Source: an uncultured Tateyamaria sp.
GTDB taxonomy: Bacteria; Pseudomonadota; Alphaproteobacteria; Rhodobacterales; Rhodobacteraceae
Reading direction: 5' to 3'
NCBI RefSeq assembly: GCF_947488715.1
Contig: NZ_CANLAG010000005.1
Coordinates: 325,950-357,949, forward strand
Length of the DNA: 32,000 nucleotides
Shown: in pieces, positions 1,012 to 24,807 of the stretch
How positions within the stretch are numbered: the stretch's first letter is position 1
Layout: every line of letters begins with the position of its first letter
Program-made: the position numbers and the translations under genes
The notes under the pieces: generated by a model
The model's input: the letters and a program-made list of their open reading frames with translations, nothing else
Databases searched by the model: none
Told to the model about the DNA's origin: nothing

Positions 1012-4000
1012 GTGATGGGTGGGCACAAATCGTCAATTGCGAACGGATCAACGGATGCCGTGGTGTCGCGCGTGTTTGGCATTGCGGGCATTGTCGACTG
1101 TGATGTGACGGATGTGCCTGTGTCTGCGGGGGCGCTGCGCGTTCTGCGCGTTATGGGGCCAGGCGCGGTTGCGTTGGCCAAGTCGCCGCCTGAGGGTTTG
1201 TTGCGCCGGGATGGCGGAGAGGTTGACCTTATCTTGCCAGTCACGGATGTGCGCGATCCTTTGCCCGAGGATATGGCTCTGTGGACGGATGCGGCGCAAA
1301 ATGATGCTCTGCGCGATTTGCAAACGGCGACAGGTGCGCGGGATGTCGCGCTGACGCTGGACTGGGATGCGGCACCTGTTGCGCGCATGCGCGTTGGGGT
1401 GGCTTCTAAACCCGATGCGCCACAACCGCCGTCGGACCGCGCCGCATTCGGGCGTAAGTTGTCTGATGTGCCTGCGCTCATCGAAGGTGCGCCTTACATC
1501 GCGCCAGATGATCATCCTCGGACTTTGGCGGATGCTGTGCATCGCCTTACCGCGTCGACCAAAGAGATTGTCGCATACCGGCCTGACGGTCGGGTCCATC
1601 GGGTCACCTACGCCACGCTTGTGGATCAGGCGCGCCGGGTTCAGGCGGGATTGGCGGCTGCGGGGCTGGGCAAGGGCGACATCGTTCTGTGTGACGTCAC
1701 GGACGCCATTCAAAGCACGGCAATCGTCTGGGGCGCGACCCTCGGCGGCGTTGTGCCTGCGCTGATTTCAGTCCCTGAGGATCATGGTGACGGGCAGGCA
1801 GAAGCCTTTGGACGTATCGAAGCGGCCGCGCAGGTTTTGGGGCATCCGCCGATCATCCTTGACCAGGCGCAGATGTGCGATGAGCTGCGCGGGTTTAAGG
1901 TGCTCGATGCCACAGGCTTGGTGCAACATCCTACCGCCGCTGACCAACCCGTCGAAATTGACCCGGAAGACGACGCCGTCGTGTTGTTGACGTCGGGCAG
2001 CACGGGCGTGCCCAAAGGCGTGGTGCAATCCCATCGCGCCACCTTGGCAATGGTCGGGGCCGCCTTGCACCGTGGCGCGGGGATCGAAGCATCGCATACC
2101 GTGTTCAACTGGATGCCACGCGACCACGTGGGATCATATATGATTGCCACCATGGGTGCCTGCGTCCTGGGCGCTTCGCAGGTGCACGCCGATACCGGTT
2201 GGATCCTCGCCGATCCGACCCGTTGGCTTGATGCAATGTCTGAACACCACGCCGGGCTGACGTGGTCGCCGAATTTCTCCTTTGCCTTGATCACGCGTGC
2301 GGCGCTGGAACACCCCAAAGGCTGGGATCTTTCGGGATTGAAGGCCATTTTCAATGGCGGGGAAACCGTCACTGAGGACGTGCTGGACGCGTTCATAGAC
2401 GCCATGAAACCCTTTGGTGTGTCAGGCTCCGGGGTCATGATCCCGTCGCTCGGCATGTCCGAGACGTGCTCTGCCGTGACACTGGGACGACTGGGGCGGG
2501 CCCATGGCCCATTCACGAGCCTTGGTGGTGCTGTGCCTGGCACGCAGTTGCGCGCGGTTGATCCTGAGGATGGCGTTTTGCGCGAGGGCGAGATTGGGCG
2601 CGTCCAAGTCGCAGGCCCCCAACTGATGAGCCGTTATCACGGGCTGGATACGGCCGCGATTTCGCCGGACGGGTGGTATGACACGGGCGATCTGGGCTTT
2701 ATCGCCGACGGTGGGCTGTATCTCACCGGACGTCTCAAGGACACGGTCAACGTCAACGGAGCGACGTATTTCGCGCATGAAATAGAACAGGCTTTGGGTG
2801 ATATTCCCGGTGTCGACGATGCGGCAACCGTTGTAACAGCGGTGGACCGGGCGAATGACGGCGAAGCATTGGCTGTGTTCTTTGCCCCTGCGGATGCCAG
2901 TGGGCGAGACAATGCAACAGTTCTGGCGCAATTGGCGGCCGTGCTGCGCGACAGGCTGGCGGCACGGTTGGCCCTGACCCCAGATCTTTTGATCCCCATA
3001 GACCCGGTGGACATCCCACGCACCAGCATCGGCAAGGTGGTGCGCCGTACCCTTCAGGACCGGGTCCGCGCCGGTGACTTTGATCGCCGTATCGCGCTGT
3101 TGGAACACGCGGCAGGCGCTACAGGCGTTGTGCCTTGCGCCGTCCACCGCAAAGTCTGGGTGCCATTCGCTTCTACTCCGTCATGCACCGCACCAAACTA
3201 CCCAGCCTTAGTGTTCTGCGATGACCCGGCCGAAGCGGGTTTTCTGAGTGACATGCCAACGTCTTACATCGCGCCGCCGGACGGCGTGTGGCCCCAGCAA
3301 GATGTGCGCGGGGGTATGGTCATGTTCATTGCGCCGCGGCGCAATGCCCACGCTGCGTTAGTGCGGATTGCTGACCAGATTGCGAACCTGTCGCCAAATC
3401 ATCGGCCCGCGCATGTTTTGGTCGTGACGCAGGGCGCGGTTTGTGTGGACCCGTCGGATGCCACCCAGCCGGAACACGCTCTATTACCGGGTCTTGTGCA
3501 ATCGCTCGGCGTTCTTGCGCCCGACGTGCATTGGTCCTTGGCAGACATAAACAGGACGGACCGCGCTGGTCAGTCGACCGCCATTTCTGCGTCACGCGTG
3601 TGTCTGTCTGCCTTTCGGAACGGCTCTTGGGTCACGCCAAAATGGCAACGCGAGAGCCTAGGCACACAACCACCGAAACCGGGCCCGTGGTTGGTCACGG
3701 GTGGTTTGGGCGGTATTGGCCGTCAGGTCTGCGCAGACCTACAAAGCTGCGGTGCCGAACTGATCATCGTCGGACGTACGCCGGAAATCGGGCTGGACGA
3801 GACGCGATCGCAAGCATTGGCGAATTTCCGGGCATCAGGCCGGGTGCAATACGTGTCCTGCGATCTGGCAAAGGGGACCTTGGCCGACGTCTTGCCAAAG
3901 ATCGAAGCCATTTTGGACCGCACTATCGCGGGTGTCATCCACTTGGCGGCATGTGTGCCGGATGAACAGGCGCCTCACGCCGTGGCTGGTGACTGGGACG

Positions 4001-4881
4001 CAGCCCAAGCCGCCTTGTCGGCTGTGTTTGCGTTGGGCATAGATCGACCAGACCTTCGGGTCGTGACGGTTGGGTCGATTGTCGGCCAGGTGGGCGGTCG
4101 GCTGCAGGCCTATGCGGCCCTGAATGCTGCGCTTGCAGAGGCATCCTTGGCCGCAGGCGGCGTGCACCACGTCCGGCTGGACCTTTCGTGTTGGGAAAAT
4201 CGCGGCATGAGTGCGGGTCGGACCAGCGCGTCGTTGCTTCACGCGGATGGTTTGCTGCCGTTGCGTGATGCGACTGGCGTTGCGCTGATGCGGCATGCCA
4301 TGTGCGCGCCCAGTGGCCATTTGATCGGCGGAATGGATGTGCGCCACCCTCGGCACGGTTGGCTGGAAGAAGCGGAAACCGCGCGGCCCGTTCTGGCACC
4401 GACCGCGTGGGTCGGCGGCAATACGTCCGCAGGTGCCGTGTCTTTGCGTGATGCACGCGGGGCGGATCATCTTGTTCCCCTGCATGTCCGCGAGACGCTG
4501 CCAAAAACCGCAAGCGGCGCGGTTGATCAGGCACAGCTGTTAGCCGGGTCGGCTGAACTGGACGACGCGGCGGATGACCCCGTGGCGCAGGTGGTGGCAC
4601 TGGCCATGGCCGACACGCTCGACTTGGATCAAGCCTCTGTTTCGGCGGACTTCTTTGCCCTTGGTGGCACATCATTGTTGGCCGCACGTCTTGCGCAACA
4701 GTTGGCCGAACTGTTCTTTGTTGATCTGAGCATCGCGCATGTGTTCCGCGCGCCGCGCCCAGCACAACTGGCCAAAACCTTGCGCCGTCGTGAGGCAGAG
4801 CCGGGGCTCGTTGACGCCGCTGCCGGTGAAATTCTCAATGCCGTAAGCGCACCGGAAACCCAGACCGAGCCCGCGGAATGA
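1012..4881 (+). CDS. Assembly-line loading protein: FAAL-like acyl-AMP ligase - PKS-type ketoreductase - carrier protein (1289 aa)
   Basis: The ORF begins at GTG 1012 or ATG 1015, and the true start is uncertain. ANL-superfamily motifs: LLTSGSTGVPKG (nt 1984-2019), NWMPRDHVGS, SPNFSFAL, GMSET, YDTGDLG, and GRLKDTVNVNGATYFAHEIE, which is the KD..NG type seen in FAAL/acyl-CoA ligases rather than the NRPS GRxDxQVKIRGxRIE. The A10 motif is IPRTSIGKVVRR (3016-3048). The KR shows Rossmann VTGGLGGIG (3694-3720) and the catalytic Tyr motif QAYAALNAAL (Tyr codon 4111-4113). The carrier motif is FFALGGTSLLAARL (Ser codon 4672-4674). The stop codon overlaps the next start (ATGA). Confidence 0.85.
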   Translation: MMGGHKSSIANGSTDAVVSRVFGIAGIVDCDVTDVPVSAGALRVLRVMGPGAVALAKSPPEGLLRRDGGEVDLILPVTDVRDPLPEDMALWTDAAQNDALRDLQTATGARDVALTLDWDAAPVARMRVGVASKPDAPQPPSDRAAFGRKLSDVPALIEGAPYIAPDDHPRTLADAVHRLTASTKEIVAYRPDGRVHRVTYATLVDQARRVQAGLAAAGLGKGDIVLCDVTDAIQSTAIVWGATLGGVVPALISVPEDHGDGQAEAFGRIEAAAQVLGHPPIILDQAQMCDELRGFKVLDATGLVQHPTAADQPVEIDPEDDAVVLLTSGSTGVPKGVVQSHRATLAMVGAALHRGAGIEASHTVFNWMPRDHVGSYMIATMGACVLGASQVHADTGWILADPTRWLDAMSEHHAGLTWSPNFSFALITRAALEHPKGWDLSGLKAIFNGGETVTEDVLDAFIDAMKPFGVSGSGVMIPSLGMSETCSAVTLGRLGRAHGPFTSLGGAVPGTQLRAVDPEDGVLREGEIGRVQVAGPQLMSRYHGLDTAAISPDGWYDTGDLGFIADGGLYLTGRLKDTVNVNGATYFAHEIEQALGDIPGVDDAATVVTAVDRANDGEALAVFFAPADASGRDNATVLAQLAAVLRDRLAARLALTPDLLIPIDPVDIPRTSIGKVVRRTLQDRVRAGDFDRRIALLEHAAGATGVVPCAVHRKVWVPFASTPSCTAPNYPALVFCDDPAEAGFLSDMPTSYIAPPDGVWPQQDVRGGMVMFIAPRRNAHAALVRIADQIANLSPNHRPAHVLVVTQGAVCVDPSDATQPEHALLPGLVQSLGVLAPDVHWSLADINRTDRAGQSTAISASRVCLSAFRNGSWVTPKWQRESLGTQPPKPGPWLVTGGLGGIGRQVCADLQSCGAELIIVGRTPEIGLDETRSQALANFRASGRVQYVSCDLAKGTLADVLPKIEAILDRTIAGVIHLAACVPDEQAPHAVAGDWDAAQAALSAVFALGIDRPDLRVVTVGSIVGQVGGRLQAYAALNAALAEASLAAGGVHHVRLDLSCWENRGMSAGRTSASLLHADGLLPLRDATGVALMRHAMCAPSGHLIGGMDVRHPRHGWLEEAETARPVLAPTAWVGGNTSAGAVSLRDARGADHLVPLHVRETLPKTASGAVDQAQLLAGSAELDDAADDPVAQVVALAMADTLDLDQASVSADFFALGGTSLLAARLAQQLAELFFVDLSIAHVFRAPRPAQLAKTLRRREAEPGLVDAAAGEILNAVSAPETQTEPAE

Positions 4882-7800
4882 GCAAGCTGGGGATCATAGA
4901 CCGCACCGCATTGGCAAAGCGTTTGACACAACGCGGCTTTGGTTCAGCCCAAGACGAACCGCGTGAGCCGAGCGTTCCGCAAGACGCCACACCAACTGCC
5001 AACATGGCAGAGAAACGGTTCTGGACGCAGGAGCAGATGGACCCGACCCCGGGCTTGAACGCCTTGGGTGTTTGGCTGGATTTGAAGGTCCCGGTGACCC
5101 GGGCGGCGTTTGTTGCGGCATTGACCAAGGTGGTGCAGCGTCACGACGCCTTGCGTACCAAGTACACGGACCGCGATGGCGCGTTGCACCTTGATGTGGT
5201 GGACGATCTGCCACTGCCGCTCGGTGCGCCTTTGGGCGACACCGCGCCTGATGCCGTCCGTCAGGCTCTGTTCGACATGGGTTTGATCATGGCCCAGGAC
5301 ACGCCGTGGCAGGTTCGGCTGGCGGTGACGGGCCGGAATGGCACAGATGAAGTCGTCAATGGCGTCTTGATCGGCGTGCATCACGCCATCATGGACTGGG
5401 GCGGTTTGGCCGTCTTTGTGCAAGAACTCGATCAGGCGCTGGATGGTGCGGAAACACCGGCGTCGCCTGTGCATCCTCAGGGATTTGAACATAAATTTCA
5501 AAGGTCTCGAGCCGCCCATCGTGCCGAAGCCGAGGCCTACTGGCAGGCGCGCCTAGATGGGTGCCCCGCCGTTTTGTCCATCCCCGCAGCGCAAAGCGGG
5601 TCCGAACCGGCCCCCGGCTATCACACAAGAACCTTAACACTGGGCGCCGAACAGTCGCAGCGTCTGCGTGCACGGGCTGCGGCACTTGGTGCGACACCGT
5701 TTTCTCTTTTGCTGTCCGCCTATGGCTTGGTGCTGACCGGACTGTCCAGCACGCCAGAGGTGGTTTTCGGCACTGCCGTGTCGCATCGTGACCAACAAGG
5801 CGGAGAGTGCATCATCGCATGCCTGTCAGACCTCGTGCCGTTGCGGCTGGCCCTGGACAGTTCCGACACGGTGGACAGCACACTGCGCGGCGTTCACGGC
5901 CAGATGGCGCAGGATATCGAGCACGCGCATCTAGGCTTTGCCGACATTGTTGCCGCATCGGGTGTGGCGCGTCACCGGGACAAGGCCCCGCTGGTACAGG
6001 CGATATTCAATCTCTTGGAGCCTATGCCCGAGGGCCAGCACCTGACGGCGCAACCGGTTTACAGTCAGGTTGCCCGCGCGGACATCGCTTTGGACGCCCA
6101 AGATCACGGTGACCTTTCGCTGCGCCTTGAGTTGCGCGCCGCAATGTTCACGCCTGCGCTGGCGGACCAAATTGCGCGGTGTTTGGACAGTGCGGTTGCG
6201 CATGTTCTGGCGGATGGGTCGCAGCCGCTTGGTGCCGTTGCTTGGCCTGTGGCCCCACCTGACATACAGCCATCTCTGGCCCCGCCAAAGACCCATTTGG
6301 GGGAATGGTTGTTTGACCGCATGGCGGCGCAGCCGGGGCAAACCGTAAAGGACGGTGACCAAGTCACAACATTTGCGGAGATCTGCAAAAGTGCGGAGGC
6401 TTTGGCGGCGGCGCTGATCGATGCAGGCGTCGCACCGGGCGACGCAGTTGCCGTGCATCTGCCGCGCGGGATTGCCCAAGTGACAGCCACGCTTGCCTGT
6501 TTGCGTGCGGGTGGGGTCTTGGTGCTGATTGACCCCGATCACCCGGTTCAACGACGTGCAGATGTTGTCGCTCAGTCGCAGGCCCGTGTGATGATTGGCG
6601 AAGGCATCGATGCTGATCTGACATCGCTGGTCGATGTGATGGTTGCGCCCACTGCCAAGGGGGCAGGCGCATGTCCAACTGTGTGGCCGCACCGGGACCC
6701 GCAAGACATCGCGTACATCGTGTTCACCTCCGGTTCGACCGGGCGACCCAAGGGGGCATGCGGGACCCATCAGGGCCTGTTGAACCGTCTGATCTGGATG
6801 GAGGGCGCGTATCCCTGGGCATCGGACGACGTGGCGTGCCTCAAAACCTCTGCGGCTTTTGTCGATGCGCTGACCGAGATGCTCGGACCGTTGGCGGCGG
6901 GTGTCGCCAGTGTTGTTGCGGGGGCGGATGTGGCAAAGGATCCGCATGCCCTGGCGCAGTTCATTGGCACAAATCACGTGACGCGGATTGTTGCAGTGCC
7001 AAGCCTGATTTCGGTTTGGACAGATCATGTGCCGGGTATTGCGACCTTTTTGTCCCCATTGCGGTTGTGTGTGTCGAGCGGAGAGCCGTTGACCGCGCGG
7101 GTTCTGCGCAAAATGGCAGAGATCGCGCCGAAATGCCGGGTGCTGAACCTCTATGGCGCATCCGAGATGTCGGGGGATGTGACGCATCACTTGCCCACAG
7201 GGACAAGTGACGTGATCCCCATTGGACGCGCGATGCCGGGCAATCGTCTGGCTGTTGTCGACCCGAATGGACATACTTTGCCCACTGGGTTCCCCGGCGA
7301 ATTGGTCGTGTCGGGCGTTGCTTTGGCGGACGGGTATCGTGGCGCGACCGCGGCGGACCAGGCACGGTTTGCTCCCATGGCCGTCTTTGATGGCGCTGTG
7401 GGCTATTCCACTGGGGACCGCGCTTATCTGGATGGGTCGGGTGACGTGGTCTTGCTGGGCCGCAAGGATGATCAGGTCAAGATTGACGGCGTCCGGGTTG
7501 AATTGGCAGAGGTGGCACGGGTGATCGAACATGCGCCCGGTGTGGCGCAATGCGTGGTGCTGGCCGCTGGAGCCGAGGGCGGCTCACCCCACTTGACCGC
7601 CTTTGTGACTTTGGCGGATGCAGCAACAGACACGCCTAACGAGGGTGCGCTGCGTCAGTTTGCACGGGCACGTTTGCTTGGGTCGGTTGTTCCTGGGCGT
7701 ATCCTTGTCCTCGAAACGATGCCGACGGGTCCTACGGGCAAAATCGACCGCCGGGCACTTGAGGCCAATGCAGCGCAGCGCGGTGCAGAAATTGCGTCAG

Positions 7801-10800: not shown

Positions 10801-11138
10801 AGGTTGATATGGCGGCGCTGCCTGCACCTTGGGACGCTCCGGTTGACGCGGCCGTCGACGCAACCGCCATAGCGCCCGAAACCTTGGCCGAGGTCGAACG
10901 CCTCGTTGCCGCCCTTTGGCGCGACATCCTCAAGCGTCAGGACATCCCATCCGGGCGCAGTTTCTATGACTGCGGCGGGGACTCGTTGTCCATCGTGGCG
11001 TTGCAGGCCCGGCTTGAGGCCGCACTGGGCGTCGACATTCCGGTGGGTGAAATGTTTGCGCATCCAACCCTGTCCGACATGTCCGAAATGATTTTTTCCA
11101 AACGATTTCAAAAGAAACTTGTGGAGTTCGAAATATGA
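4878..11138 (+). CDS. Non-ribosomal peptide synthetase, two modules: C-A-PCP-C-A-PCP (2086 aa)
   Basis: C1 His motif HHAIMDWGG (5379-5405). A1 motifs: FTSGSTGRPKG (6723-6755), NLYGASE, YSTGDRAY, GRKDDQVKIDGVRVELAEV and PTGKIDRRAL (Lys codon 7740). PCP1 FFALGGTS (Ser codon 7911-7913). C2 HHMASDGWS (8472-8498). A2 motifs: YTSGTTGRPKG (9813-9845), AYGPAE, LRTGDRG, GRTDRQLKIRGTRVEP and TPNGKVDMAAL (Lys codon 10800). PCP2 FYDCGGDSLS (Ser codon 10983-10985). ATGA overlaps at both ends. Confidence 0.95.
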   Translation: MSKLGIIDRTALAKRLTQRGFGSAQDEPREPSVPQDATPTANMAEKRFWTQEQMDPTPGLNALGVWLDLKVPVTRAAFVAALTKVVQRHDALRTKYTDRDGALHLDVVDDLPLPLGAPLGDTAPDAVRQALFDMGLIMAQDTPWQVRLAVTGRNGTDEVVNGVLIGVHHAIMDWGGLAVFVQELDQALDGAETPASPVHPQGFEHKFQRSRAAHRAEAEAYWQARLDGCPAVLSIPAAQSGSEPAPGYHTRTLTLGAEQSQRLRARAAALGATPFSLLLSAYGLVLTGLSSTPEVVFGTAVSHRDQQGGECIIACLSDLVPLRLALDSSDTVDSTLRGVHGQMAQDIEHAHLGFADIVAASGVARHRDKAPLVQAIFNLLEPMPEGQHLTAQPVYSQVARADIALDAQDHGDLSLRLELRAAMFTPALADQIARCLDSAVAHVLADGSQPLGAVAWPVAPPDIQPSLAPPKTHLGEWLFDRMAAQPGQTVKDGDQVTTFAEICKSAEALAAALIDAGVAPGDAVAVHLPRGIAQVTATLACLRAGGVLVLIDPDHPVQRRADVVAQSQARVMIGEGIDADLTSLVDVMVAPTAKGAGACPTVWPHRDPQDIAYIVFTSGSTGRPKGACGTHQGLLNRLIWMEGAYPWASDDVACLKTSAAFVDALTEMLGPLAAGVASVVAGADVAKDPHALAQFIGTNHVTRIVAVPSLISVWTDHVPGIATFLSPLRLCVSSGEPLTARVLRKMAEIAPKCRVLNLYGASEMSGDVTHHLPTGTSDVIPIGRAMPGNRLAVVDPNGHTLPTGFPGELVVSGVALADGYRGATAADQARFAPMAVFDGAVGYSTGDRAYLDGSGDVVLLGRKDDQVKIDGVRVELAEVARVIEHAPGVAQCVVLAAGAEGGSPHLTAFVTLADAATDTPNEGALRQFARARLLGSVVPGRILVLETMPTGPTGKIDRRALEANAAQRGAEIASEPSEHTAQSQQIAEIWADVLDVALPTPEADFFALGGTSLRAVVVMSRLSAAIGRYLEPGLIFDHPTPAALADAVIQGETAQGDGPPLPAVTVRAPAERSPMTANQAWLWRLHRDAPQSTAYNLAAGYRLGAHVDLDALADAVAAVFERHTSLRTRVHTEGAEAWTQCASSPEPDCALIRESDDETPDEALIQRAATRPFDLQQENPARFAIYPRKAGYLLVISVHHMASDGWSAQVIVDDLSRCYAQKVAGRDIADAPVPQSSDVAHWQNEARPALRDTLDAYVAGLAEAAGPTLAPANPMAPRGGLAERVTVKLDAATLGDLVAQGPIGTTTLGVLCAAWALVLRGFGTDTPLLMGIPRAGRSAPGLEKAVGFFANTVLMPLDPDPAEPWSSVLQQTQDKLRATAPCDMIPLAWVQDAGAGWRADTSEIRTLVVPEDGFDWKLDLPGADVQWAGQSRPTEARADVAVVLTRAGAGLSVEIEYDTGRISAMFGQSLANALACILKGAARNPRAGGAPLTEDETTPATLQNDTESSAFTGQRIDAQLADWAHAAPDAVAAVGPEGAITAAELEARVATYATRLSAAGLSCDMAAAVDCQRGLSWLVAILSIWRVGARVVILDPAWPHAQRADICDDANVAMVLDAGTVSFTAPFPTAKGQALRGLADIAALTYTSGTTGRPKGVALAHDALLRLGDALRTALDVRPGDRILQAAAPAFDVALSDIAMALTARAALVVLPQDDVLAGRNLTNALEREQITHMQVAATVLSNTAAQPLPHLRAVAVGGEPCPPATLDAWSKGRALFVAYGPAEATVTATVIRYDAQMPQAALGFPIAGNNLAVLDRFDQPLPPGAVGDIVIGGRQIARYLGHAAAGANGFGTTDVFGETQPALRTGDRGWMTADGCLVFAGRTDRQLKIRGTRVEPRAIEVALDAHPEVQRALVGHTGDGPERMLVAWVTLRSGIIDAKSEAVLRDWLSARLPKASVPSRIAVLEAWPLTPNGKVDMAALPAPWDAPVDAAVDATAIAPETLAEVERLVAALWRDILKRQDIPSGRSFYDCGGDSLSIVALQARLEAALGVDIPVGEMFAHPTLSDMSEMIFSKRFQKKLVEFEI

Positions 11139-17100: not shown

Positions 17101-20100
17101 ATTGACGGCTCAGGAGGGCTTGCAGCCCGGTGCGTCTGTCGCCGTTCTGCTGCCGCGCTCCACTCGCGCTATTGTCGCGCTGCTCGCTGTGATGCGGGCG
17201 GGCGGTGTGGCCGTTCCGGTCGACGCGGCATATCCGGCGGACCGCATTGCCTATATCTTAGCTGACTGTGGCGCTGAACTGGTGGTCACCCAGACGGGCA
17301 TGGCGCAACCGCTGGACAGCGTGACGGTTGTCCTCTGCGATACGTTGGAGGTGGCCGAGACACCAACTGGCACGGGTGAGCTGCCTGCACCCGACAGCCC
17401 GGCCTATATGATCTACACCTCTGGATCGACGGGCCAGCCCAAGGGCACGTTGACCCACCATGGCGGCGTCGACAACATGATCGCAGCCCAGGCTCTTGCC
17501 TTCAATTTGGGTCCAGCGGACCGCGTGCTCCAGTTTGCTTCGCTGTCGTTTGATGCGTCCGTTTGGGAAATGTTCATGGCATTGGCCGCAGGCGCGGCCC
17601 TCTATGTTCCCACGCGCGAACAGGCGCTGGGTGGCAGGGAATTGGCCGATTACATCGCTGATCATCGCATCACCGCAGCGACATTGCCGCCAACCGTGAT
17701 CGACGGTGTTTCGCCCGAACAGGTGCCGGACCTGTCGCTGCTGGTGGCTGCGGGCGAGGCGTGCCCCCGACACCTGGGGCAGACGTGGGCAAAAGATCGG
17801 CGCTTTTACAACGCTTACGGACCAAGCGAGGCATCGGTTTGTGCCACGCTGCATCAGGTTGAAACGGCAGAGCACACCGTGCCGATCGGTACCGCGATTG
17901 CCGGGGCCGTGGCCTATGCGGTTGATCAGGATGGGCATCTTGTCCCGATGGGCGGCACGGGTGAGTTGGTGATTGGCGGCGCTGGCGTCGGGCTTGGTTA
18001 TCATGGTCGGCCCGAGCTGACGGCCCGCGCCTTTGTGCCGGACAAGTGGCGACAGGATGCGCGCGCCCGTGCGTACCGGACCGGCGACCGTGTTGAGGTC
18101 GGTGCAAATGGCGCGCTTGTGTTCCGTGGGCGGCTTGATCGCCAGATCAAGCTGCGCGGGTTCCGTGTGGAACCGGGCGAGGTTGAGAACGCGTTGATGC
18201 AAGACCCCGCAGTCCACCGAGCGCTGGTCGGGGTGCGGTCTTCTGACGGTATGTCGCGCCTTTTGGCATGGGTCGTGCCTGTGGCCGGTGCGGTGGTGTC
18301 CCCAGATGGCCTGCGCGAGATGCTCGCCCAGCAGCTTCCGGGGCATATGGTCCCGGCATCTGTCGTGGTTGTGGATGACGTTCCATTGACGCCCAATGGC
18401 AAGGTCGATTGGGCCGCGTTGCCGGATGCCTCCGACGATGCGCCCGCTGAACCGGCACCAGTTGTCGAAACCAAGGTTGCCGTAGCACCGCCTGCGGCGG
18501 CTCTTACGACCGAGGAACGCGTGATCCTCAAGCTGACCGAGATCTGGTCAGAGTTGCTGGACGGTCGGTCCGTTGCACCGGACCAGAATTTCTTTGATGC
18601 GGGTGGGCATTCCTTGCTGTTGGTACGTATGCAGCCCATGCTGAAGGAGGCGTTTGGCGTTCAGGTCCGCACGCGGACCTTGTTTGACAACCTTACCATC
18701 TCGGCCCTTGCCACCGTTCTGTGCGACACCGGTGCGCAGGTGCCGGACGATGTGGCCGTCGCAGAACCGGTGCCTGCTGCCGATGAGGGTGTGAAAGCGC
18801 CCGCGATTGGCACCGCGCGGACCGCAGAACCGATTGCCGTTATCGGCATGGCCTGTCGGTTTCCCGGCGCGTCAGACCTCGCTGCCTATTGGGATATGCT
18901 CCGTCGGGGTGACGAAGGGCTGTGTGACTTGACCCGCGCCGACCTTCTTGCCGCAGGTGTCAGCGCGTCTGACGCGGAAAACCCGGCCTATGTCGCGCGA
19001 CGCGGCATCATTGATCACGCGGACAGTTTCGATGCTGCCGCCTTCGGGATTGGACCAAGAGAAGCAGAGTTGATGGACCCTCAACAACGCCTGTTCCTTG
19101 AATGTGTCTGGCACGCGCTTGAGGATGCAGGTCAGCCCCCGCGCAGGGGCCAAAACACGGGCGTGTTTGCCGGGGCAGGCTACAACACCTGGATGAACGA
19201 AGTGCTGCGACCTGCCGGGCATTCCATGGAAGGCTCAGCCGGGTATCATGCCGTAACGGCCAATGAAAAAGACTTCTTGGCCACGCAGACCGCGTTCCGT
19301 CTGGATCTGCGGGGACCGGCAGTGTCGGTTCAAACCGCGTGCTCTACGTCGCTGGTGGCCGTGGTGCAGGCCGTGCAGGCGTTGCGATCAGGCCAGTGCG
19401 AAACCGCTGTCGCCGGAGGGGTGTCCGTCGCCTTTCCGACCCATCGCGGCTATATGTACGAACCGGATATGATCTTGTCGCCGGACGGTCATTGTCGGCC
19501 CTTTGGCGCAGAGGCGGCGGGTACGGTGCCGTCCTCCGGGGTTGGTGCGGTCATCTTGAAACCGTTGGACAAGGCGCAACAGGACGGCGACCGGGTTTAT
19601 GCGGTGATCCGCGGCACCGGGCTGGGCAATGATGGCGCGCGCAAGATGAGCTTTGCCGCGCCGGGCGTCGATGGGCAGGCTGATGCCATGCGCGCGGCTC
19701 TGGACGACGCAGGTCTATTGCCCAGCGATGTGGACGCTATCGAGGCGCACGGCACAGGCACGGCATTGGGTGATCCGGTCGAAATGACGGCCATTGCCCG
19801 CGTTTATGCTGATCGCTCCACGCCGCTGTCCATTGGATCGGTCAAAGGCAACATCGGGCATGCGGATGCCGCTGCGGGCATTGCTGGTTTCATCAAGTCC
19901 GTGCTGGGGCTCTGGCATGGTGAAATGCCGGCCAGTTTGCATGCAGACACTGTGAACGCGCGCCTGGACCTTGCGGATGGTGCGCTGCGGATCGCCAGTG
20001 ACCGTGTCACCTTGGGCCCGCGTGCACGTGCCGGAGTCAGTTCCTTTGGCATCGGTGGCACCAATGCACATGTGGTGTTGGAGCGGGCTGAAACACAACA

Positions 20101-23056
20101 GGATGACGCGATCTGCGGGCCGGAGGAATGGCAAGTGCTGCCGCTCTCTGGGCACTCGAATGATGCGGTCGTAGACGGGGCAAGCGCTCTGTCCGAGCAT
20201 CTCGGGACCAGTGAAGCACCACTTGCGCAGGTGGCTGCGACGCTTCAATCCGGTCGTGCGGCGCTGCATTACAGGACAGCTGTTCTGGCTCAAGACACGC
20301 ACCGAGCTGACGCAGCTCGTGCGTTGGGTGACGTAGCACCCGGCAAGGCCTCACAGGTCGACGCCGCATTTCTGTTTGCAGGGCAGGGCAGCCAACATCT
20401 GGCGATGGGCCGCGCGCTGTACGAACGCTATAAGGCGTACCGCGATGCCATGGATGACATCGACGCGCGGATCACACCGCTGTTGGGGCAATCGCTGCAT
20501 GGGTTGATCATGTCGGGCGATGCGTCGGCGGAACAGACCCTGCGTGACACCCGATACGCGCAACCTGCCGTTTTTGCCGTGTCACTCGCCACCGCGCGTC
20601 TGTGGCAAGCGGTGGGCCTTCAGCCACGTGCCGTACTTGGGCATTCTGTTGGTGAATTTGCAGCGGCGCACATTGCTGGCGTCATGGACCTGGACGAAGC
20701 CCTTCGGCTGATCGTCGCGCGCAGTGCGCTTGTGGCTGAGCAACCCGTGGGCGGCATGCTGGCGACAACGATGTCCGCAGAAGCCGCACAGGCCCACGTC
20801 GGGGATGGCATAGAGATCGCGGCCTACAATGGCCCGCAACAGGTTGTTTTTGCAGGGCCATCCGACCCATTGGATACGCTGCGCGCGACCCTTGATGCGC
20901 AAGGCACGCCTTGCCATCCTCTTGCAACGTCCCATGCGTTTCACTCTGCAATGCTTGCACCCGCCCGCGACGCGTTTCGATCCTGCATCGACACATCCAA
21001 ACTGTCGCCACCGACCGTACCCTTTGCTTCGACGGTCACTGGCGGCTGGGTCGAGGCTCAGGATCTGTTGAGCAGCGACTATTGGGCGGATCACATCTGC
21101 AAACCGGTGCGGTGCGCGCAGGCCATGGCCGCATTGGCGGACAACACAGCGATGGTTGGTCTGGACATGGGGCCGGGCACAACGATGACATCACTGGCCG
21201 CGGCGAACGGGATTGAGTGTCTGCCCAGCCATGATGTGCCAGGCGTTCGCACGGACGACGCGCAACAGCCGCCTGCTGTCCTGTCGACGCTCGCCACACT
21301 CTGGCGCAGAGGTGCCAATGTGAACTGGGACGCCATGCGCAAGGGGCAACCCCGCAAGACGTCGCTGCCCCTGACCCCGTTTGCGCGGACACGGCACACA
21401 CCAACTGTCGCGCCGACCTCGGACTGGCCCGCCAAGCGTGCGGATATGGGTACATGGTTTTATCGTCCCGCGCTGTCCGCCGTGGCAAAGCCAACTGGCG
21501 TCGATTGGGGTGGCAAGGTGCTCGTGGTCACGGATGCGCCCGACGGTGCGGCCGAGACACGTCAGGCGATCCTGTCGCCCGGCACGGACACACAGGTCGT
21601 GGACATCGCACTGACCGCGCCCGATCAAGTTTTGAGCGGGCAGATCGCAGGGTGTCGCCATCTCGTCTTTGTCCTGACCGCTGATTACGGGTCTGACTGG
21701 ACCGTTTTGCAAAGCGTTCTGGCTTGGGTGCGCAGATTTGTGGGCGAGCAGGGTGCGCTGGCGCGGGGTTTGCATTTGGTAACGCATGGCGGCGCGCCCG
21801 TCGGTGACATCGGACCTGTGATCCCGATGCAGTCCGCCATACGCAGTGCATTTGAGGTGTTGGCCGTGGAACATCCGGAGCTTGAGGTGTCCGGAGTGGA
21901 TATTGGCGGCGCTGTGCCAGCATCGCTGGATGTGCCAGCCGCAGGGTTCCTGGTCTGGCATGACGGAGCATATCACGACATCCAACCGACGGCAGCCCAG
22001 ATGCCAACGCCGTCACGAAAGATTCTGCCCAAAGCGCCGCGCATCTTAATCACTGGCGGGTTTGGCGGCGTTGGCCGCGCGCTGGCCTTGGAGTTTGCAG
22101 ACAGCCACCCCGGCGCGACGTTTGTGTTGACCAGCCGCGACGATCAAAGCGAAGCGCCGCTTTTGACCCAACTCCGGGCCAAAGGTGCAACCGCAACGGC
22201 ACTTCAATGCGACCTGAGCGTGTCGGGCGTGCACTTGCCGGTACCTCAAACACCGTTTGATCTGGTGATCCACGCGGCAGGCTGCGCCGACGATGGTGGG
22301 GTCGTTGCGCGCCGCGACGGGCCATCTGTTGCACAGGTTCTGGCCCCGAAAATCGCGGGGCTCGATGCGCTGCAACCTGTTCTGTCGGATCAGACACAGC
22401 TTGTGCTGTGTTCGACGCTGGGATCGTGGATGCCGGACGCAAAATTTGGGCAGGCCGCTTATGCAGCCGCAAACGGTTATCTGGATGGTGCCGCCTTGGC
22501 GCAGTCGCTCGCCGGACGGCGCGTGATTGCGATCAATTGGGACGACTGGGTTGGCGCAGGCATGACCGAAGACACGCGCGCGGCCATGGGACAACCCGCA
22601 ATGACGCCCGATGACGGACTGACGGCCCAAGAGGGGGCGAGTGCGCTGGCCGCCATCGTGTCGGCGCAATGGCCACGCGTGTCCGTGTCGGTGCGCGACT
22701 TGCCGGGTTTGATGCAGGCGGCCAAAGCGCGTTTTGCAAAGGCACCTGATCCGACAGCCGCCGACCCGGCGCAGGTCGTGTCGCCGACGCAGCGCGCCAT
22801 CCCTTCACCCGACGCCATCAGCGTAATTGTACTGGACCTCTTTCGTACCGTGTTGGGGCGCACCGATTTTCAGGACACCGACAACTTTTTTGAACAGGGC
22901 GGCCACTCGCTGATGGCCATGCAAATTCTGATCCGACTGCGCGATGACGTCGGCCTGCCATGCGCCCTTGTCGACATCTTCGAAGCACCAAGCCCCGCAG
23001 AGCTCACGCAAAGACTGATTGCCAAAGCGGGCACGCACACAAAGGACATATCATGA
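11135..23056 (+). CDS. Hybrid NRPS-PKS: TubC-type docking-C-A-PCP-E-C-A-PCP-KS-AT-KR-ACP (3973 aa)
   Basis: N-terminal docking-like segment MRPLSDMLHELAGLGIELEANADKLRIRGPASALGPALREELKARKAELLAHL (11135-11290). C domain HHMISDRQS (11675-11701). A domain CFTSGTTGTAKAV (13025-13060) with A10 LPRTDAGKIDRRAL (14009-). PCP FFALGGDSI (Ser 14192-14194). E domain with PATPIMAWF, HFNQS and HHLCIDVLSW (His-His at 14696-14701). C domain with PLQHRILLHS and HHLVLDGWS (16025-16051). A domain YTSGSTGQPKG (17414-17446) with A10 LTPNGKVDWAAL (18386-). PCP FFDAGGHS (Ser 18611-18613). KS with IAVIGMACRFPGA, TACSTS (Cys 19340-19342), EAHGTGT and GNIGHADAAAG. AT with FAGQGSQ, GHSVGE (Ser 20645-20647) and HAFH (20933-20944). 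KR with TGGFGGVG (22052-22075) and AAYAAANGYLD (Tyr 22460-22462). ACP FFEQGGHS (Ser 22907-22909). Confidence 0.95.
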   Translation: MRPLSDMLHELAGLGIELEANADKLRIRGPASALGPALREELKARKAELLAHLTAPASPVSVPLLPNQRRLWFIDKLTDAATGFALQAAFVLPRQYTVAEWQDALDQLCAHHPVLDTQLIEEGDAPFLQVRPQGPRAEVHVDRLPDDAPDFDALRPTNAGLFRCAVWPRETGQSLVVLSLHHMISDRQSMSTVMQDLLHLLDGQPLTKAGRDFLDIMAQDGSAARPHAAEGLAYWTQTLSDAPADLTLPYDHARPDRRGVQGAVHRFVLSDAANLGPLAQRNNATAFATYLAVYAQLLSQWSGQTDLVIGCPVSGRYMPGTETSVGYFVNTVALRLNLDATDIASVIERARTVVMGAMEHQDVPFDHVVSALSPDRHLNRNPLFQAMFVLQPPSGNAPVFAGEPVDILPAPPLAPDVDISLMLEETAQGYAGYLEYDPDLFDPETIALFAQQFEALCQTYAGNSQTAEQRLAHWQGPDAPRPRGDMWSVLGSALKELPADHLVLEDPDGAVTKSEVLAQANAVAAGLMAQGVGSAAPVGISLARTRDRAAAMLGVWKAGATVVFLPVIGQDKSAQQVFADRVSKGAIGHVICDTASSDDAGTTATLLPFSSFSSVEEISREGLADGPAYLCFTSGTTGTAKAVAVGHDSLINHMMGIAEQFALTPADRVLQFAPTSFDMVFEDMLPALMLGASLIVPEADALADMDRFQAMISDAGITVANLPAPFWHAWVHELDATQTTAPAALRLVITGSDVVHGEAAWVWRSRCPETSLMSGYGLTESTITAMLHTPAADPSDIGLGALPLGVPLPNVAVSVVGPDGEPVPTMVVGEIAISGAAVAMGYVGAQSDHRFRQVGDEPQFMTGDLGRMRRDGHLEFLGRRDQQIKIRGVRVEPSAVEAVVMRLATVSEAAVVPRPSPTGQWGLAAYIVGDQTADHYTEELRHALPGAMVPQTVVTVPALPRTDAGKIDRRALARAPIEITATPTRAPTAQEARLAAIFADVLGQKRVGPDDNFFALGGDSITSLQIVARARRAGFALTAAQVFEHQTVAALAAHVNDLPTQDVGETSGPIPATPIMAWFATQFDQPWKHFNQSVMLAMPADLNTDALRAALQSVADAHPIFALRVDPDAAQPFSISETAEAPAFFTHTTEDGQADALDRVQASLDPTEGRNIAALWLPHQNRLMVTIHHLCIDVLSWDVLLRDLETAYDAACAETHTQITPAGASFRTWAERLNTFAKDSGVSGTVAHFMQSLGGATDPILGAPVAAGQDRDITSFRLTLPAGVTSDILRHAAVAYETRADEALLVALLMALDKRGSSGVRVDLERNGRTSPFADLDLADTIGWFTSVMPLRLMPGDDVAALAQQVRRATQDSPHDGLGFGLARYCGTSATRTALASLPEADVLLNYVGVLTGWEDAPFRPVDAPCGTTIALDTERSHVVEINAGVVAGQMRIEMIAPSSAGAEAEGLAQALETAISDLASQARQARFGADMGDNVEDVAPATPLQHRILLHSMRRPDTYFDQLRFTLDGPLDVDAMQRSWDMLVHRHKSLRTNFGFAGDDSPLQIVRQSLDMQWHHLDWRDVAPGTIARLLTDVMQVDRAVGFDIENGPLMRMHLIRRSDTQYDWIWSAHHLVLDGWSVSVVIEEWQSIYAALVRGDTPQLAPAADPSDYAAWLGQTDSGAARAFWAEHLAGAEATLIAKEQDRATAAATQAPGTDRIDLSPEVEQQLGALARDLGTTVGVIAQAAWALVLRRYGHSGAVLFGLTVSNRPPDIAGADRMVGMMINTLPVRVDLSGADTPRGVMARMSAQARARAPWSALSLDNILSAGGFGDTLPFDTMMLVQNYPQPETLSAGDVTVGLSEVAERTDLPLTLVVQSGDDPCLMAVWDRDRLGDAQVQSMLGHWHRVMTAFLADADQTLDGISIYSDAELAARVELAQGSSGDAETPRAVEAVAHWARILPDQTALVADDGVLSYRALDAAVAALAARLTAQEGLQPGASVAVLLPRSTRAIVALLAVMRAGGVAVPVDAAYPADRIAYILADCGAELVVTQTGMAQPLDSVTVVLCDTLEVAETPTGTGELPAPDSPAYMIYTSGSTGQPKGTLTHHGGVDNMIAAQALAFNLGPADRVLQFASLSFDASVWEMFMALAAGAALYVPTREQALGGRELADYIADHRITAATLPPTVIDGVSPEQVPDLSLLVAAGEACPRHLGQTWAKDRRFYNAYGPSEASVCATLHQVETAEHTVPIGTAIAGAVAYAVDQDGHLVPMGGTGELVIGGAGVGLGYHGRPELTARAFVPDKWRQDARARAYRTGDRVEVGANGALVFRGRLDRQIKLRGFRVEPGEVENALMQDPAVHRALVGVRSSDGMSRLLAWVVPVAGAVVSPDGLREMLAQQLPGHMVPASVVVVDDVPLTPNGKVDWAALPDASDDAPAEPAPVVETKVAVAPPAAALTTEERVILKLTEIWSELLDGRSVAPDQNFFDAGGHSLLLVRMQPMLKEAFGVQVRTRTLFDNLTISALATVLCDTGAQVPDDVAVAEPVPAADEGVKAPAIGTARTAEPIAVIGMACRFPGASDLAAYWDMLRRGDEGLCDLTRADLLAAGVSASDAENPAYVARRGIIDHADSFDAAAFGIGPREAELMDPQQRLFLECVWHALEDAGQPPRRGQNTGVFAGAGYNTWMNEVLRPAGHSMEGSAGYHAVTANEKDFLATQTAFRLDLRGPAVSVQTACSTSLVAVVQAVQALRSGQCETAVAGGVSVAFPTHRGYMYEPDMILSPDGHCRPFGAEAAGTVPSSGVGAVILKPLDKAQQDGDRVYAVIRGTGLGNDGARKMSFAAPGVDGQADAMRAALDDAGLLPSDVDAIEAHGTGTALGDPVEMTAIARVYADRSTPLSIGSVKGNIGHADAAAGIAGFIKSVLGLWHGEMPASLHADTVNARLDLADGALRIASDRVTLGPRARAGVSSFGIGGTNAHVVLERAETQQDDAICGPEEWQVLPLSGHSNDAVVDGASALSEHLGTSEAPLAQVAATLQSGRAALHYRTAVLAQDTHRADAARALGDVAPGKASQVDAAFLFAGQGSQHLAMGRALYERYKAYRDAMDDIDARITPLLGQSLHGLIMSGDASAEQTLRDTRYAQPAVFAVSLATARLWQAVGLQPRAVLGHSVGEFAAAHIAGVMDLDEALRLIVARSALVAEQPVGGMLATTMSAEAAQAHVGDGIEIAAYNGPQQVVFAGPSDPLDTLRATLDAQGTPCHPLATSHAFHSAMLAPARDAFRSCIDTSKLSPPTVPFASTVTGGWVEAQDLLSSDYWADHICKPVRCAQAMAALADNTAMVGLDMGPGTTMTSLAAANGIECLPSHDVPGVRTDDAQQPPAVLSTLATLWRRGANVNWDAMRKGQPRKTSLPLTPFARTRHTPTVAPTSDWPAKRADMGTWFYRPALSAVAKPTGVDWGGKVLVVTDAPDGAAETRQAILSPGTDTQVVDIALTAPDQVLSGQIAGCRHLVFVLTADYGSDWTVLQSVLAWVRRFVGEQGALARGLHLVTHGGAPVGDIGPVIPMQSAIRSAFEVLAVEHPELEVSGVDIGGAVPASLDVPAAGFLVWHDGAYHDIQPTAAQMPTPSRKILPKAPRILITGGFGGVGRALALEFADSHPGATFVLTSRDDQSEAPLLTQLRAKGATATALQCDLSVSGVHLPVPQTPFDLVIHAAGCADDGGVVARRDGPSVAQVLAPKIAGLDALQPVLSDQTQLVLCSTLGSWMPDAKFGQAAYAAANGYLDGAALAQSLAGRRVIAINWDDWVGAGMTEDTRAAMGQPAMTPDDGLTAQEGASALAAIVSAQWPRVSVSVRDLPGLMQAAKARFAKAPDPTAADPAQVVSPTQRAIPSPDAISVIVLDLFRTVLGRTDFQDTDNFFEQGGHSLMAMQILIRLRDDVGLPCALVDIFEAPSPAELTQRLIAKAGTHTKDIS

Positions 23057-24669
23057 CCGACACCACAGAACTGTTTTGCCTGCGCCCGGATGTGGTTGTC
23101 GAACCCGTTGTGGCGGGGTGGTATGCGACCACGCAACTGGTGTCGCCACTGGCACATGCCATGAACACCGCCTTTCGCCATCTGCCCATCATGCAGAGCT
23201 ATATCCAAAGCCCGCAAATGCATGCCGCGGCGGTGCAAGACCCCGACTTGTTGGGCGGGCCTTTCATCGACCACCCTGCGGAGCGTGCCTCTGACGTGGT
23301 TGATCTGTTGGAAAGCACCCGAGGCGCGCAGCAGGACCATCTGAAACTGGCCGATGCCGTGCGGACAGCGTGGGAAACTCTGCAAAACCGTGCGGCTGGC
23401 GGCAGCATGGCGGATATCTACGCTGCCATGCCGGACGACCTGCGCGGGTTTCTAGAGCTGGTGTACACGCCCGGAGGCACGCCGGATTTGCGGGTGTTCG
23501 AGGCGCTGTTGTACCGAAGCGCGCATTACACGCCGCATTTGCAGGGTGCCTTGATCCACCGGATTTCTGGTGACGAACGTCCGTTTTCCATGTCCACGCC
23601 GCGCTTTCCCAGCCCGGACAAATTCGCGCTGAACCGACCATTTTCGGACAAGGCCTATGATGTGCTGGGACGTTTACGCCGCGAACCGATGTCACGTGCG
23701 GATATCGCCAGCGCGCTGCAACTGAACGATGCGGAGGCGGCGGCGTTTGACGCATTCCTCACACCGGCCTCACCGCGTGCGCCGGTTGAGGTCGCGACAC
23801 AAAGCAGATGGCGGTATTTCGGGCACGCCTGCGTTCTGGTCGAGTCGGCAGGTGGGCGGTCGGTCTTGGTCGATCCCGTGATTGCCTACGAATCCGGTGA
23901 CGCCCCGGAACGCTACACCATCGACGATCTGCCTGATTTCATTGATGTGGTGTTGATCACGCACAATCACCCTGATCACGTGCTGATCGAAACGCTTTTG
24001 GCGTTGCGGTGGAAGATCGGCACCATTCTGGTCGCGCGCAGCGGCGGCAGCATGGTGGACCCATCGCTCAAATCTGCCCTGACGGCGATCGGGTTCGCAG
24101 ATGTCCGCGAGGTCGACTATCTTGAGGCGGTCCAGGTGGGCGACGTGTCTATTCAGGCGCTGCCCTTTCTCGGGGAACACGCAGACCTCGACATCAGTTG
24201 CAAGGCGGCTTGGTTGGTTGATGCAGGCATGCGCATGGTGTTTGCGGCGGATTCCAACAATCTGGACCCAGTGCTGTACGACCGCCTGGCCACCTCGATT
24301 GGCCGCCTGGACGCGCTGTTTCTGGGCATGGAATGTGAAGGTGCACCGATGTCCTGGCTATACGGCGCGATGTTGCCCTTTGCGGTGGACCGGGCCGACG
24401 ATCAGGAACGGCGGCTTGATGGATCCAACGCAACTCGTGCGCGCGCACTGATCGAAAGCCTCGATGTGGATCAGGTCTATATCTACGCGATGGGGCTGGA
24501 GCCGTGGCTCAAGTTCATCACCGGCATGGCCCCCGAGGACGACAGCACACCGATGCAACAGTCCGAAGAGCTGCTTGCTCAGTGCAGACAGGTCGGAATG
24601 CAGGCGCAGCGCCTCTATGGGCGTGCCACCAGCGAGGATGCTGTCGAAACGGTCGAGTTCGACCTTTAG
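23053..24669 (+). CDS. Two-domain metallo-beta-lactamase-fold protein; candidate CmlA-like non-heme diiron beta-hydroxylase (alternative: hydrolytic off-loading enzyme)
   Basis: ATG 23053 overlaps the ORF3 stop (ATGA). The longer ORF from 22960 would overlap the ACP in another frame. The 538-aa protein has an N-terminal domain of about 250 aa with no motif I recognise. The C-terminal MBL fold has RYFGHACVLVE..VLVDP and HxHxDH = THNHPDH (23962-23979), plus downstream candidate metal ligands GEHAD, FAAD and GMECEG. The size and domain order match the CmlA type, and the gene sits directly against an NRPS. The CDS call is solid and the function is inferred. Confidence 0.7.
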   Translation: MTDTTELFCLRPDVVVEPVVAGWYATTQLVSPLAHAMNTAFRHLPIMQSYIQSPQMHAAAVQDPDLLGGPFIDHPAERASDVVDLLESTRGAQQDHLKLADAVRTAWETLQNRAAGGSMADIYAAMPDDLRGFLELVYTPGGTPDLRVFEALLYRSAHYTPHLQGALIHRISGDERPFSMSTPRFPSPDKFALNRPFSDKAYDVLGRLRREPMSRADIASALQLNDAEAAAFDAFLTPASPRAPVEVATQSRWRYFGHACVLVESAGGRSVLVDPVIAYESGDAPERYTIDDLPDFIDVVLITHNHPDHVLIETLLALRWKIGTILVARSGGSMVDPSLKSALTAIGFADVREVDYLEAVQVGDVSIQALPFLGEHADLDISCKAAWLVDAGMRMVFAADSNNLDPVLYDRLATSIGRLDALFLGMECEGAPMSWLYGAMLPFAVDRADDQERRLDGSNATRARALIESLDVDQVYIYAMGLEPWLKFITGMAPEDDSTPMQQSEELLAQCRQVGMQAQRLYGRATSEDAVETVEFDL

Positions 24670-24807
24670 GCCCTGCGCCTGACGGGGACTTGATGCAAAC
24701 GTGATTGGGACGTGAGCCACTGGCTGTGCAAGGTGCTGGCTATATGTCTGCGCCTGGCCTTGGGCTTTGCGGTGGCATCTGACAACACGCTGCCGAAAGG
24801 GTCCGTC

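Follow-up and report, generated by a model that had tools for sequence, protein, structure and literature searches.

Kasumigamide, an antialgal peptide, is a linear acid of composition C40H50N8O9. In the kas cluster of 'Entotheonella' KasA is an A-KR-PCP protein, KasB runs C-A-PCP-C-A-PCP-KS-AT-KR-ACP and KasC runs C-A-PCP-E-C-A-PCP-E-C; KasD is CmlA-like and has been assigned to the β-hydroxylation of Phe (kasumigamide contains 3-phenylserine), KasE is a cyclic-peptide transporter, and the C2 unit of the product sits on residue 3, Trp (Ahipa) (PMC5061366). In Microcystis aeruginosa NIES-87, a proven kasumigamide producer, the makasA-D genes (GC content 52.9%) have the polyketide synthase (PKS) moved to a place after module 5, their only E domain stands between modules 4 and 5, a terminal C domain is lacking, and the authors called the release step unclear; the assayed Makas A domains accept phenylpyruvate, β-Ala, Trp, Arg and threo-phenylserine (Nakashima et al. 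2016, PMC5061366). Here we consider a window of 32,000 nucleotides from an uncultured Tateyamaria sp. (assembly GCF_947488715.1, contig NZ_CANLAG010000005.1, positions 325,950 to 357,949 of the forward strand), in which four + strand open reading frames (ORFs) spanning positions 1015-24669 code for a nonribosomal peptide synthetase (NRPS)-PKS line. This biosynthetic gene cluster probably belongs to the makas subtype of the kasumigamide (kas/makas) family and acts by the mechanism proposed below, which we take to be the best explanation of the data as a whole. The evidence lies in the domains and their intact motifs, in the A-domain codes, in homology and synteny, and in purifying selection. 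A previous sequence-only reading had not recognized the domain string as that of any characterized pathway, a claim that does not survive, as both the string and the A-domain codes match kas/makas and the missing release domain had already been reported for makasA-D (PMC5061366).

Successive ORFs overlap by 4 bp (ATGA) at every junction and the cluster has a GC content of 62%. The genes and their domains are as follows.

1015-4881, + strand: ORF1, ATG start, with a GTG present at 1012
1015-1494, + strand: ORF1 N-terminal family-specific extension, ∼160 residues
1495-3114, + strand: ORF1 A domain
3232-4344, + strand: ORF1 KR with structural subdomain
4582-4794, + strand: ORF1 PCP, Ser1220 at 4672
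4878-11138, + strand: ORF2, MakasB-like, with C-terminal docking tail ...LVEFEI
4995-6287, + strand: ORF2 C domain
6318-7832, + strand: ORF2 A1, code VDTVVSLGDK, β-Ala type
7830-8042, + strand: ORF2 PCP1
8094-9338, + strand: ORF2 second C domain
9375-10847, + strand: ORF2 A2, code DVSQAGAVTK, Trp position
10902-11093, + strand: ORF2 PCP2
11135-23056, + strand: ORF3, MakasC-like
11150-11293, + strand: ORF3 TubC_N dock
11318-12634, + strand: ORF3 C domain
12647-14089, + strand: ORF3 A1, code DMENIGGITK, Arg position
14111-14299, + strand: ORF3 PCP1
14342-15604, + strand: ORF3 E domain
15623-16924, + strand: ORF3 second C domain
17000-18403, + strand: ORF3 A2, code DAWTVAAVCK, Phe/phenylserine
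18527-18724, + strand: ORF3 PCP2
18827-19945, + strand: ORF3 KS
20369-21193, + strand: ORF3 AT, predicted malonyl
21422-22624, + strand: ORF3 KR
22817-23014, + strand: ORF3 ACP, Ser3925
23053-24669, + strand: ORF4, KasD/CmlA-family non-haem diiron β-hydroxylase by homology

Pfam finds AMP-binding, KR and PP-binding domains in ORF1, two Condensation, two AMP-binding and two PP-binding domains in ORF2 (C-A-PCP-C-A-PCP), and in ORF3 a TubC_N dock, three Condensation-type domains (C, E, C), two AMP-binding and three PP-binding domains, KS, AT and KR, with E-values for the three proteins of 1e-8 to 1e-158 that exclude chance matches. Together with the ORF coordinates this bears out the four same-strand genes, the ATGA overlaps and the domain string of the sequence-only reading, which had also judged the catalytic motifs intact and the line functional in appearance. 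All six carrier serines are indeed kept (ORF1 S1220; ORF2 S1012 and S2036; ORF3 S1020, S2493 and S3925), as are the motifs of the C domains (HHAIMDW, HHMASDG, HHMISDR, HHLVLDG), of the E domain (HHLCIDVLSW and TIGWFT) and of the KS (TACS with C2736, HGTGT, NIGH), the Rossmann motif and Tyr in the KR domains of both ORF1 and ORF3, and the AT motifs GHSVG and HAFH, on account of which the AT is predicted to be malonyl-specific. The absence of a release domain stands as well: no thioesterase (TE), reductase or terminal C domain occurs in the megasynthases (no PF00975, no PF07993), the sole GxSxG of ORF3 sits in its AT domain, and the protein stops 48 residues past the ACP Ser, close to the ∼50 noted before. 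A Pfam search of the ORF3 tail and of ORF4 for such domains gave none, ORF4 consisting of CmlA_N and metallo-β-lactamase (MBL) domains, and in 11 related loci no release domain follows the last carrier either.

Set against the published text, ORF3 shows the makas-subtype features, namely the PKS after the last NRPS module, one E domain and no terminal C domain (PMC5061366). Of the features of the family at large, the following are found: an A-KR-PCP loader and, judged by code, a β-Ala and then a Trp module, an Arg module with E domain and a Phe/phenylserine module, as well as a single cis-AT malonyl KS-AT-KR-ACP, a CmlA-like gene, a cyclic-peptide ABC transporter and no megasynthase TE. Stachelhaus codes were extracted against a GrsA reference sequence, the numbering of which reproduces the GrsA code DAWTIAAICK. 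The code of ORF2-A2 is identical to that of A2 in the KasB-like protein of a kas-type contig, L099, and ORF2-A1 (VDTVVSLGDK) compares with VDWVVSLADK (β-Ala) in the same contig. ORF3-A1 matches DVENVGGITK, found in the kas-type locus L028 and the makas-type contig L100, at 8 of 10 positions, and the code of ORF3-A2 is identical in both; the dakas-like codes of Delftia are DVENVTGISK and DAWTVAAVAK. An initial assignment of ORF3-A1 to Orn, prompted by DMENLGLINK, presumably an Orn code, was revised to Arg because the domain is equivalent in position to the assayed MakasC-A1. Among relatives from Rhodobacteraceae, Rhodospirillales and Alcaligenaceae the A-domain codes are nearly invariant.

ORF2 is 36% identical over 2142 residues to the NRPS part of the L099 KasB-like protein and ORF3 37% identical over 2384 residues to the DakasC-like NRPS of Delftia, while the KS and AT of ORF3 are 62% and 46% identical to the kas-type domains. 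The L099 contig holds DUF697, a small ORF, SPFH, a KasA-like protein of 1364 residues and a KasB-like protein of 3600 residues that ends in the PKS. When metagenomes were scanned with the A-PCP-KS junction, most matches were generic NRPS-PKS junctions and one alone was relevant, L100, a contig (GC 54%, AT-rich flank) that looks cyanobacterial; its MakasC-like protein of 4114 residues is collinear with ORF3 from dock to ACP (41% identity over 4154 residues), its codes read DVSQSGAV-K, DVENVGGITK and DAWTVAAVCK, and a CmlA gene then follows. Two Delftia loci (L043, L068), in which an NRPS tail with five Condensation-type, two A and two PCP domains precedes CmlA-like, type II TE, ABC and SPFH genes, appear from their gene content to fit dakas as described in PMC5061366. 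Delftibactin was rejected as the identity of the Delftia locus, there being no PKS in its last 10 kb, and the thalassospiramide cluster, of which Oceanibaculum is a known producer, was ruled out for the present family because that pathway has trans-AT PKS modules and a TE.

The closest match of ORF1 in the PDB is StsA (6ULW, 2e-93), a keto-acid-activating A-KR-pseudoAsub module, and this fits loading of an α-keto acid and its reduction to an α-hydroxy acid. Identity to the 1364-residue KasA-like protein of L099 is 34% over 1198 residues, and in an alignment with relatives the Rossmann, Tyr and Ser residues are invariant. Compared with its L006/L009 relative, ORF1 is 49% identical whereas ORF4 is 74% identical, and the loading module evolves much faster than the remaining line; because ORF1 is divergent and the A-pocket residues differ, the starter acid may vary within the family. 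Residues 1-160 have no Pfam match and occur in relatives at 34-60% identity, with the motifs PGI...RVL..GPGA...SPP.W...ILPVT...PLW.

ORF4 had been described as a generic MBL-fold protein, which is too little. It contains CmlA_N (PF18456, 1e-70) in addition to MBL domains, matches CmlA (4JO0, 1e-106) and a second diiron monooxygenase structure (8A90, 5e-117) along its whole length, keeps the metal motif HNHPDH (HxHxDH ligands, residues 304-309), shares 52% identity with the Delftia homologue and 57% with that of L100, and evolves with a ratio of non-synonymous to synonymous substitution rates (dN/dS) of 0.07-0.14. By homology ORF4 is a KasD/CmlA-family diiron β-hydroxylase. An MBL fold with HxHxDH in a gene translationally coupled to the last carrier domain might instead suggest that ORF4 is itself the missing release enzyme, a thioesterase of the MBL fold like those of some fungal polyketide pathways, which would cleave the chain from its ACP or PCP by hydrolysis. 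The full-length homology, CmlA_N included, leads us to reject a hydrolytic release role; in addition, the counterpart KasD acts, by its published assignment, in forming the 3-phenylserine of the product (PMC5061366), and kas-type clusters hold the same gene plus a terminal C domain. We regard such a thioesterase as hardly credible. A search of a plasmid collection returned only distant CmlA homologues, in Ralstonia megaplasmids. Many CmlA homologues at 44-47% identity (L046, L047, L060, L063, L067 and others, from Acidobacteriota metagenome-assembled genomes (MAGs)) have an A domain and KS-AT located 3' on the same strand, which points to what may be another widespread family combining β-hydroxylation with PKS extension.

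About 12 lineages share the layout with the PKS last and no TE, namely two lineages of Tateyamaria MAGs, Tateyamaria SN3-11, a marine Rhodobacteraceae contig, a Sulfitobacter MAG, Rhodospirillaceae Z3-40, an alphaproteobacterial MAG, Oceanibaculum pacificum, a Rhodospirillum MAG, Pusillimonas T2, Neopusillimonas and L100; the locus itself is found again in several MAGs. Between members dN/dS is 0.06-0.22, with dS saturated, indicating that the line is under purifying selection, and the missing release domain is a family trait and not decay. One might still suppose a truly orphan pathway, unrelated to characterized ones, or a decaying and non-functional cluster, given that none of the proteobacterial members has a demonstrated product, that identity to the kas-type proteins is just 34-62%, that SN3-11 has lost one nucleotide before its ACP Ser codon and that the Neopusillimonas copy is fragmented. 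The module-by-module match and the identical or near-identical A-domain codes tie the locus to kas/makas, all motifs in the window are intact, and with the dN/dS values this makes either version very improbable.

In Tateyamaria sp. SN3-11 (NZ_CP180422.1; L014, ∼9850-9880) a 1-nt deletion in a G-run right before the terminal ACP Ser codon shifts the frame to GGIRCWRCKS* instead of GGHSLLAMQ; this is a sequencing error in the homopolymer or else a mutation, inactivating or phase-variable. In Neopusillimonas aromaticivorans (CP128233.1; L012, 196-10004) the homologous megasynthase is broken up into numerous short predicted genes, which marks it as a pseudogene or as misassembled, and a PPTase-like gene, a 63-residue ORF and a type II TE lie on the opposite strand just 3' of the CmlA gene.

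As to mechanism, we infer the substrates, the order of module action and the mode of release. ORF1 would adenylate an α-keto acid, phenylpyruvate by analogy, load it and reduce it in cis to the α-hydroxy acid. ORF2 would then add β-alanine followed by an aromatic residue, Trp by the identity of the code with that of KasB-A2, and ORF3 would add Arg, its single E domain giving D-Arg, and next Phe/3-phenylserine, the β-OH of which would come from the CmlA-type ORF4. One malonate unit would be added by the KS-AT and reduced by the KR, and the product would be secreted by the ABC exporter. The steps up to the pentapeptidyl stage follow, as predictions, from homology, and the product is likely kasumigamide-like, hydroxyacyl-β-Ala-Trp-D-Arg-phenylserine plus one reduced C2 unit. 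The β-amino acid, the single D-residue and the hydroxyacyl starter of the scaffold proposed from sequence alone are thus retained, whereas the C-terminal position that it gave to the C2 extension is uncertain, kasumigamide having this unit on Trp.

Two placements of the C2 unit, after Trp or after phenylserine, have to be weighed. Since the Microcystis makasA-D genes, the sole characterized cluster of this layout, make kasumigamide, we lean modestly, by analogy, toward Trp, a non-collinear arrangement in which the C-terminal PKS module would take its turn after ORF2 and before the first module of ORF3. Release is most simply explained by hydrolysis in trans, as kasumigamide is a linear acid, and we favor a trans-acting type II thioesterase or other hydrolase that would give the linear acid; standalone PF00975 type II thioesterases do occur in the accessory cassettes of several relatives.

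The same family and building blocks could also be used by a collinear line, which would make a constitutional isomer of kasumigamide, hydroxyacyl-β-Ala-Trp-D-Arg-[phenylserine + C2], that releases itself as a δ-lactone: the β-OH placed on Phe by ORF4 would become a 5-OH after C2 extension and attack the ACP thioester, so that neither a TE nor a terminal C domain is needed. This is canonical assembly-line logic. The ORF2 tail ...VE(F/Y)E(I/L) co-occurs with the ORF3 TubC_N dock (both are missing in Pusillimonas), which would place ORF2-PCP2 at the first C domain of ORF3. The second E and terminal C domains that the makas type has lost relative to the kas type would both be superfluous on a collinear route, about 12 lineages have kept the end without a TE, and the two Tateyamaria-lineage clusters are also without a type II TE in the cassette. 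Yet Microcystis NIES-87, with the same layout, reportedly produces genuine kasumigamide, in which Trp bears the C2 unit (PMC5061366). Since the docking pair also occurs in the cyanobacterial-looking L100, docking does not discriminate between the positions of C2. In kas-type Delftia, too, the CmlA gene stands after the last NRPS gene, so that its adjacency is not specific to a PKS terminus, and lactone release is a conjecture of our own. We consider the collinear isomer possible but unlikely. That the PKS-last layout yields a new kasumigamide isomer through δ-lactone self-release enabled by CmlA-type hydroxylation, with no release enzyme at all, appears to us rather doubtful; if true, hydroxylase-enabled self-release would explain the loss of the second epimerase and the terminal C domain in the makas subtype.

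Several observations nevertheless weigh against a makas-type, non-collinear line with release in trans. Non-collinear use of the PKS needs several non-canonical transfers and accounts neither for the D-configuration of phenylserine nor for the release step, and the conserved ORF2 tail/ORF3 dock pair is easier to reconcile with a collinear order. Neither here nor in the Tateyamaria-like relative L097 do the flanks (10 kb upstream, 7 kb downstream) contain a thioesterase, the regions 3' of the cluster in five relatives contain unrelated genes and no TE, and a search for type II TE orthologues gave matches at 57-66% identity in Puniceibacterium and Sulfitobacter while none surfaced in Tateyamaria, the search not being whole-genome. 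Moreover, a cassette type II TE may be a mere editing enzyme, as it is also found beside lines with their own TE. ORF1 is the most divergent of the genes (34% to the kas-type KasA-like protein) and its pocket residues differ, so that the starter acid may differ too, and the match to makas itself (kas/makas records LC160290 and LC160291) rests on the text of PMC5061366, on Delftia loci that fit this text and on the cyanobacterium-like L100.

The kasumigamide-family cluster is not confined to the window. The full unit measures ∼28 kb and consists of genes for a phosphopantetheinyl transferase (PPTase), DUF697, a 56-residue ORF, an ABC exporter and SPFH followed by ORF1-ORF4, beginning about 3.3-3.4 kb upstream of window position 1 as seen in L003, the source locus read to 10 kb upstream of the window start. 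The earlier statement that PPTase and exporter are lacking holds inside the window, but both lie within 3.4 kb upstream of position 1. Similarly, of the housekeeping genes said to flank the line, gcvP, gcvH and gcvT are confirmed downstream, while SPFH belongs to a conserved accessory cassette cut by the window start. The PPTase is EntD/Npt-like and of Sfp type; the exporter exceeds the TIGR01194 cutoff narrowly (286.7 bits vs 286.2) and its stop overlaps the SPFH start codon by 4 bp at window position 1, the two genes being coupled in translation.

1-996, + strand: SPFH/Band-7 gene (PF01145, 6e-21), last gene of the cassette
L003 8319-10004: SyrD/PvdE-type ABC exporter, fused permease/ATPase, KasE-like (TIGR01194, cyclic peptide export)
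L003 6663-10996: cassette in the source locus
L097 2482-6873: cassette in the Tateyamaria-like relative
L009 3652-7901: cassette in marine Rhodobacteraceae
L010 6312-9983: cassette in Pusillimonas sp. T2
L094/L095/L096 ∼5446-10720: cassette
L043 ∼12443-16530: cassette in Delftia
L099 2253-4387: cassette in the kas-type contig
24772-26187, + strand: DUF3179 gene (PF11376) with long N-terminal extension, outside the cluster

The cassette lies 5' of homologous NRPS genes in L097, L009 and L010, SPFH being syntenic with these genes in all three and with the kas-type cluster in L099, and we assign SPFH (dN/dS 0.06 vs L097) to the cluster, not to a housekeeping flank, because the cassette recurs beside NRPS genes in relatives. 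Its core of DUF697, small ORF, ABC and SPFH genes is variably joined by the PPTase and a standalone PF00975 thioesterase. The cluster is bounded 5' by the PPTase gene, since the genes past it differ between L003 and L097, and 3' by ORF4, since the DUF3179 gene is not conserved downstream of the CmlA gene in relatives (it is absent from this position in L006, L013, L014, L016, L017 and L018). Across loci the small ORF has 53-60 residues and there is a 4-bp overlap of the ABC gene with SPFH. The cassette accompanies differing NRPS or NRPS-PKS lines in alpha- and betaproteobacteria, including other NRPS lines in Sulfitobacter, Puniceibacterium and Delftia. In the Sulfitobacter MAG (JBPOFD010000010.1; L011, 1-8806, and L094) the makas-type line stands back-to-back with a second, lipopeptide-type NRPS-PKS line (acyl ligase, KS-AT-ACP, aminotransferase, C-A-PCP-TE and others), with one accessory cassette on the contig. 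Farther out, an egtB/egtD-like pair (DinB_2 + FGE-sulfatase, Methyltransf_33) at L003 3283-5479, 5' of the PPTase, suggests ergothioneine synthesis and is probably unrelated to the cluster, and a glycine riboswitch aptamer (RF00504, 55 bits, 30713-30797, - strand) upstream of gcvT-gcvH-gcvP reflects ordinary housekeeping regulation.

The arrangement with the PKS last and no release domain has been known in Microcystis since 2016; what is new here is the host range, the wide and conserved occurrence of this layout, the docking pair and the accessory cassette. A literature search on Tateyamaria or Roseobacter NRPS-PKS lines and TE-less release found nothing specific. The kasumigamide family is extended to the marine Roseobacter group, Rhodospirillales and Alcaligenaceae, and the shifted-PKS, no-release layout is conserved under selection in about a dozen lineages, and cannot be put down to a peculiarity or faulty assembly of a single Microcystis strain. 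The point left open in 2016, module order and release, can now be tested in culturable proteobacteria such as Tateyamaria sp. SN3-11 or Oceanibaculum pacificum. As a natural-product lead the locus is ordinary, its product being a probable congener of a known antialgal peptide.

Among known systems, makasA-D (LC160291) shares with the Tateyamaria locus, by the paper's description, the string A-KR-PCP / C-A-PCP-C-A-PCP / C-A-PCP-E-C-A-PCP-PKS / CmlA-like, and its assayed substrates fit the codes found here. The Tateyamaria host differs in being a marine alphaproteobacterium with a cluster GC of 62% vs 52.9%, the sequence comparison proceeds through the likely relative L100 (41-57% identity), and the Tateyamaria locus carries the PPTase/DUF697/ABC/SPFH cassette, a divergent starter pocket and a product known by prediction. 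The clusters kasA-I ('Entotheonella'), dakasA-J (Delftia acidovorans) and hkasA-H (Herbaspirillum) have in common with it the building blocks, the KasA-type loader, the CmlA-type hydroxylase, the cyclic-peptide ABC exporter and the absence of a TE. In the kas type, however, KasB closes with the PKS, which comes after the Trp module, whereas in Tateyamaria the PKS module holds the terminal position, and KasC ends in E-C, a second epimerase and a terminal C domain for which a role in chain release was proposed, neither of which is present in ORF3. CmlA of chloramphenicol biosynthesis (4JO0) and related diiron β-hydroxylases (8A90) share with ORF4 full-length homology, CmlA_N and HxHxDH; the substrate of ORF4 is presumably Phe, and hydroxylation may occur at a different stage than with CmlA, which acts in a PCP-tethered mode, as the partner A domain in Microcystis preferred free phenylserine. 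Finally, ORF1 aligns to StsA across the A core, Asub, KR and PCP, and its logic, activation of a keto acid that is then reduced in cis, is that of the StsA/CesA-type A-KR-PCP modules and of AerA of aeruginosin biosynthesis; unlike the StsA/CesA-type modules, ORF1 is an initiation module with a predicted substrate and a ∼160-residue N-terminal extension.

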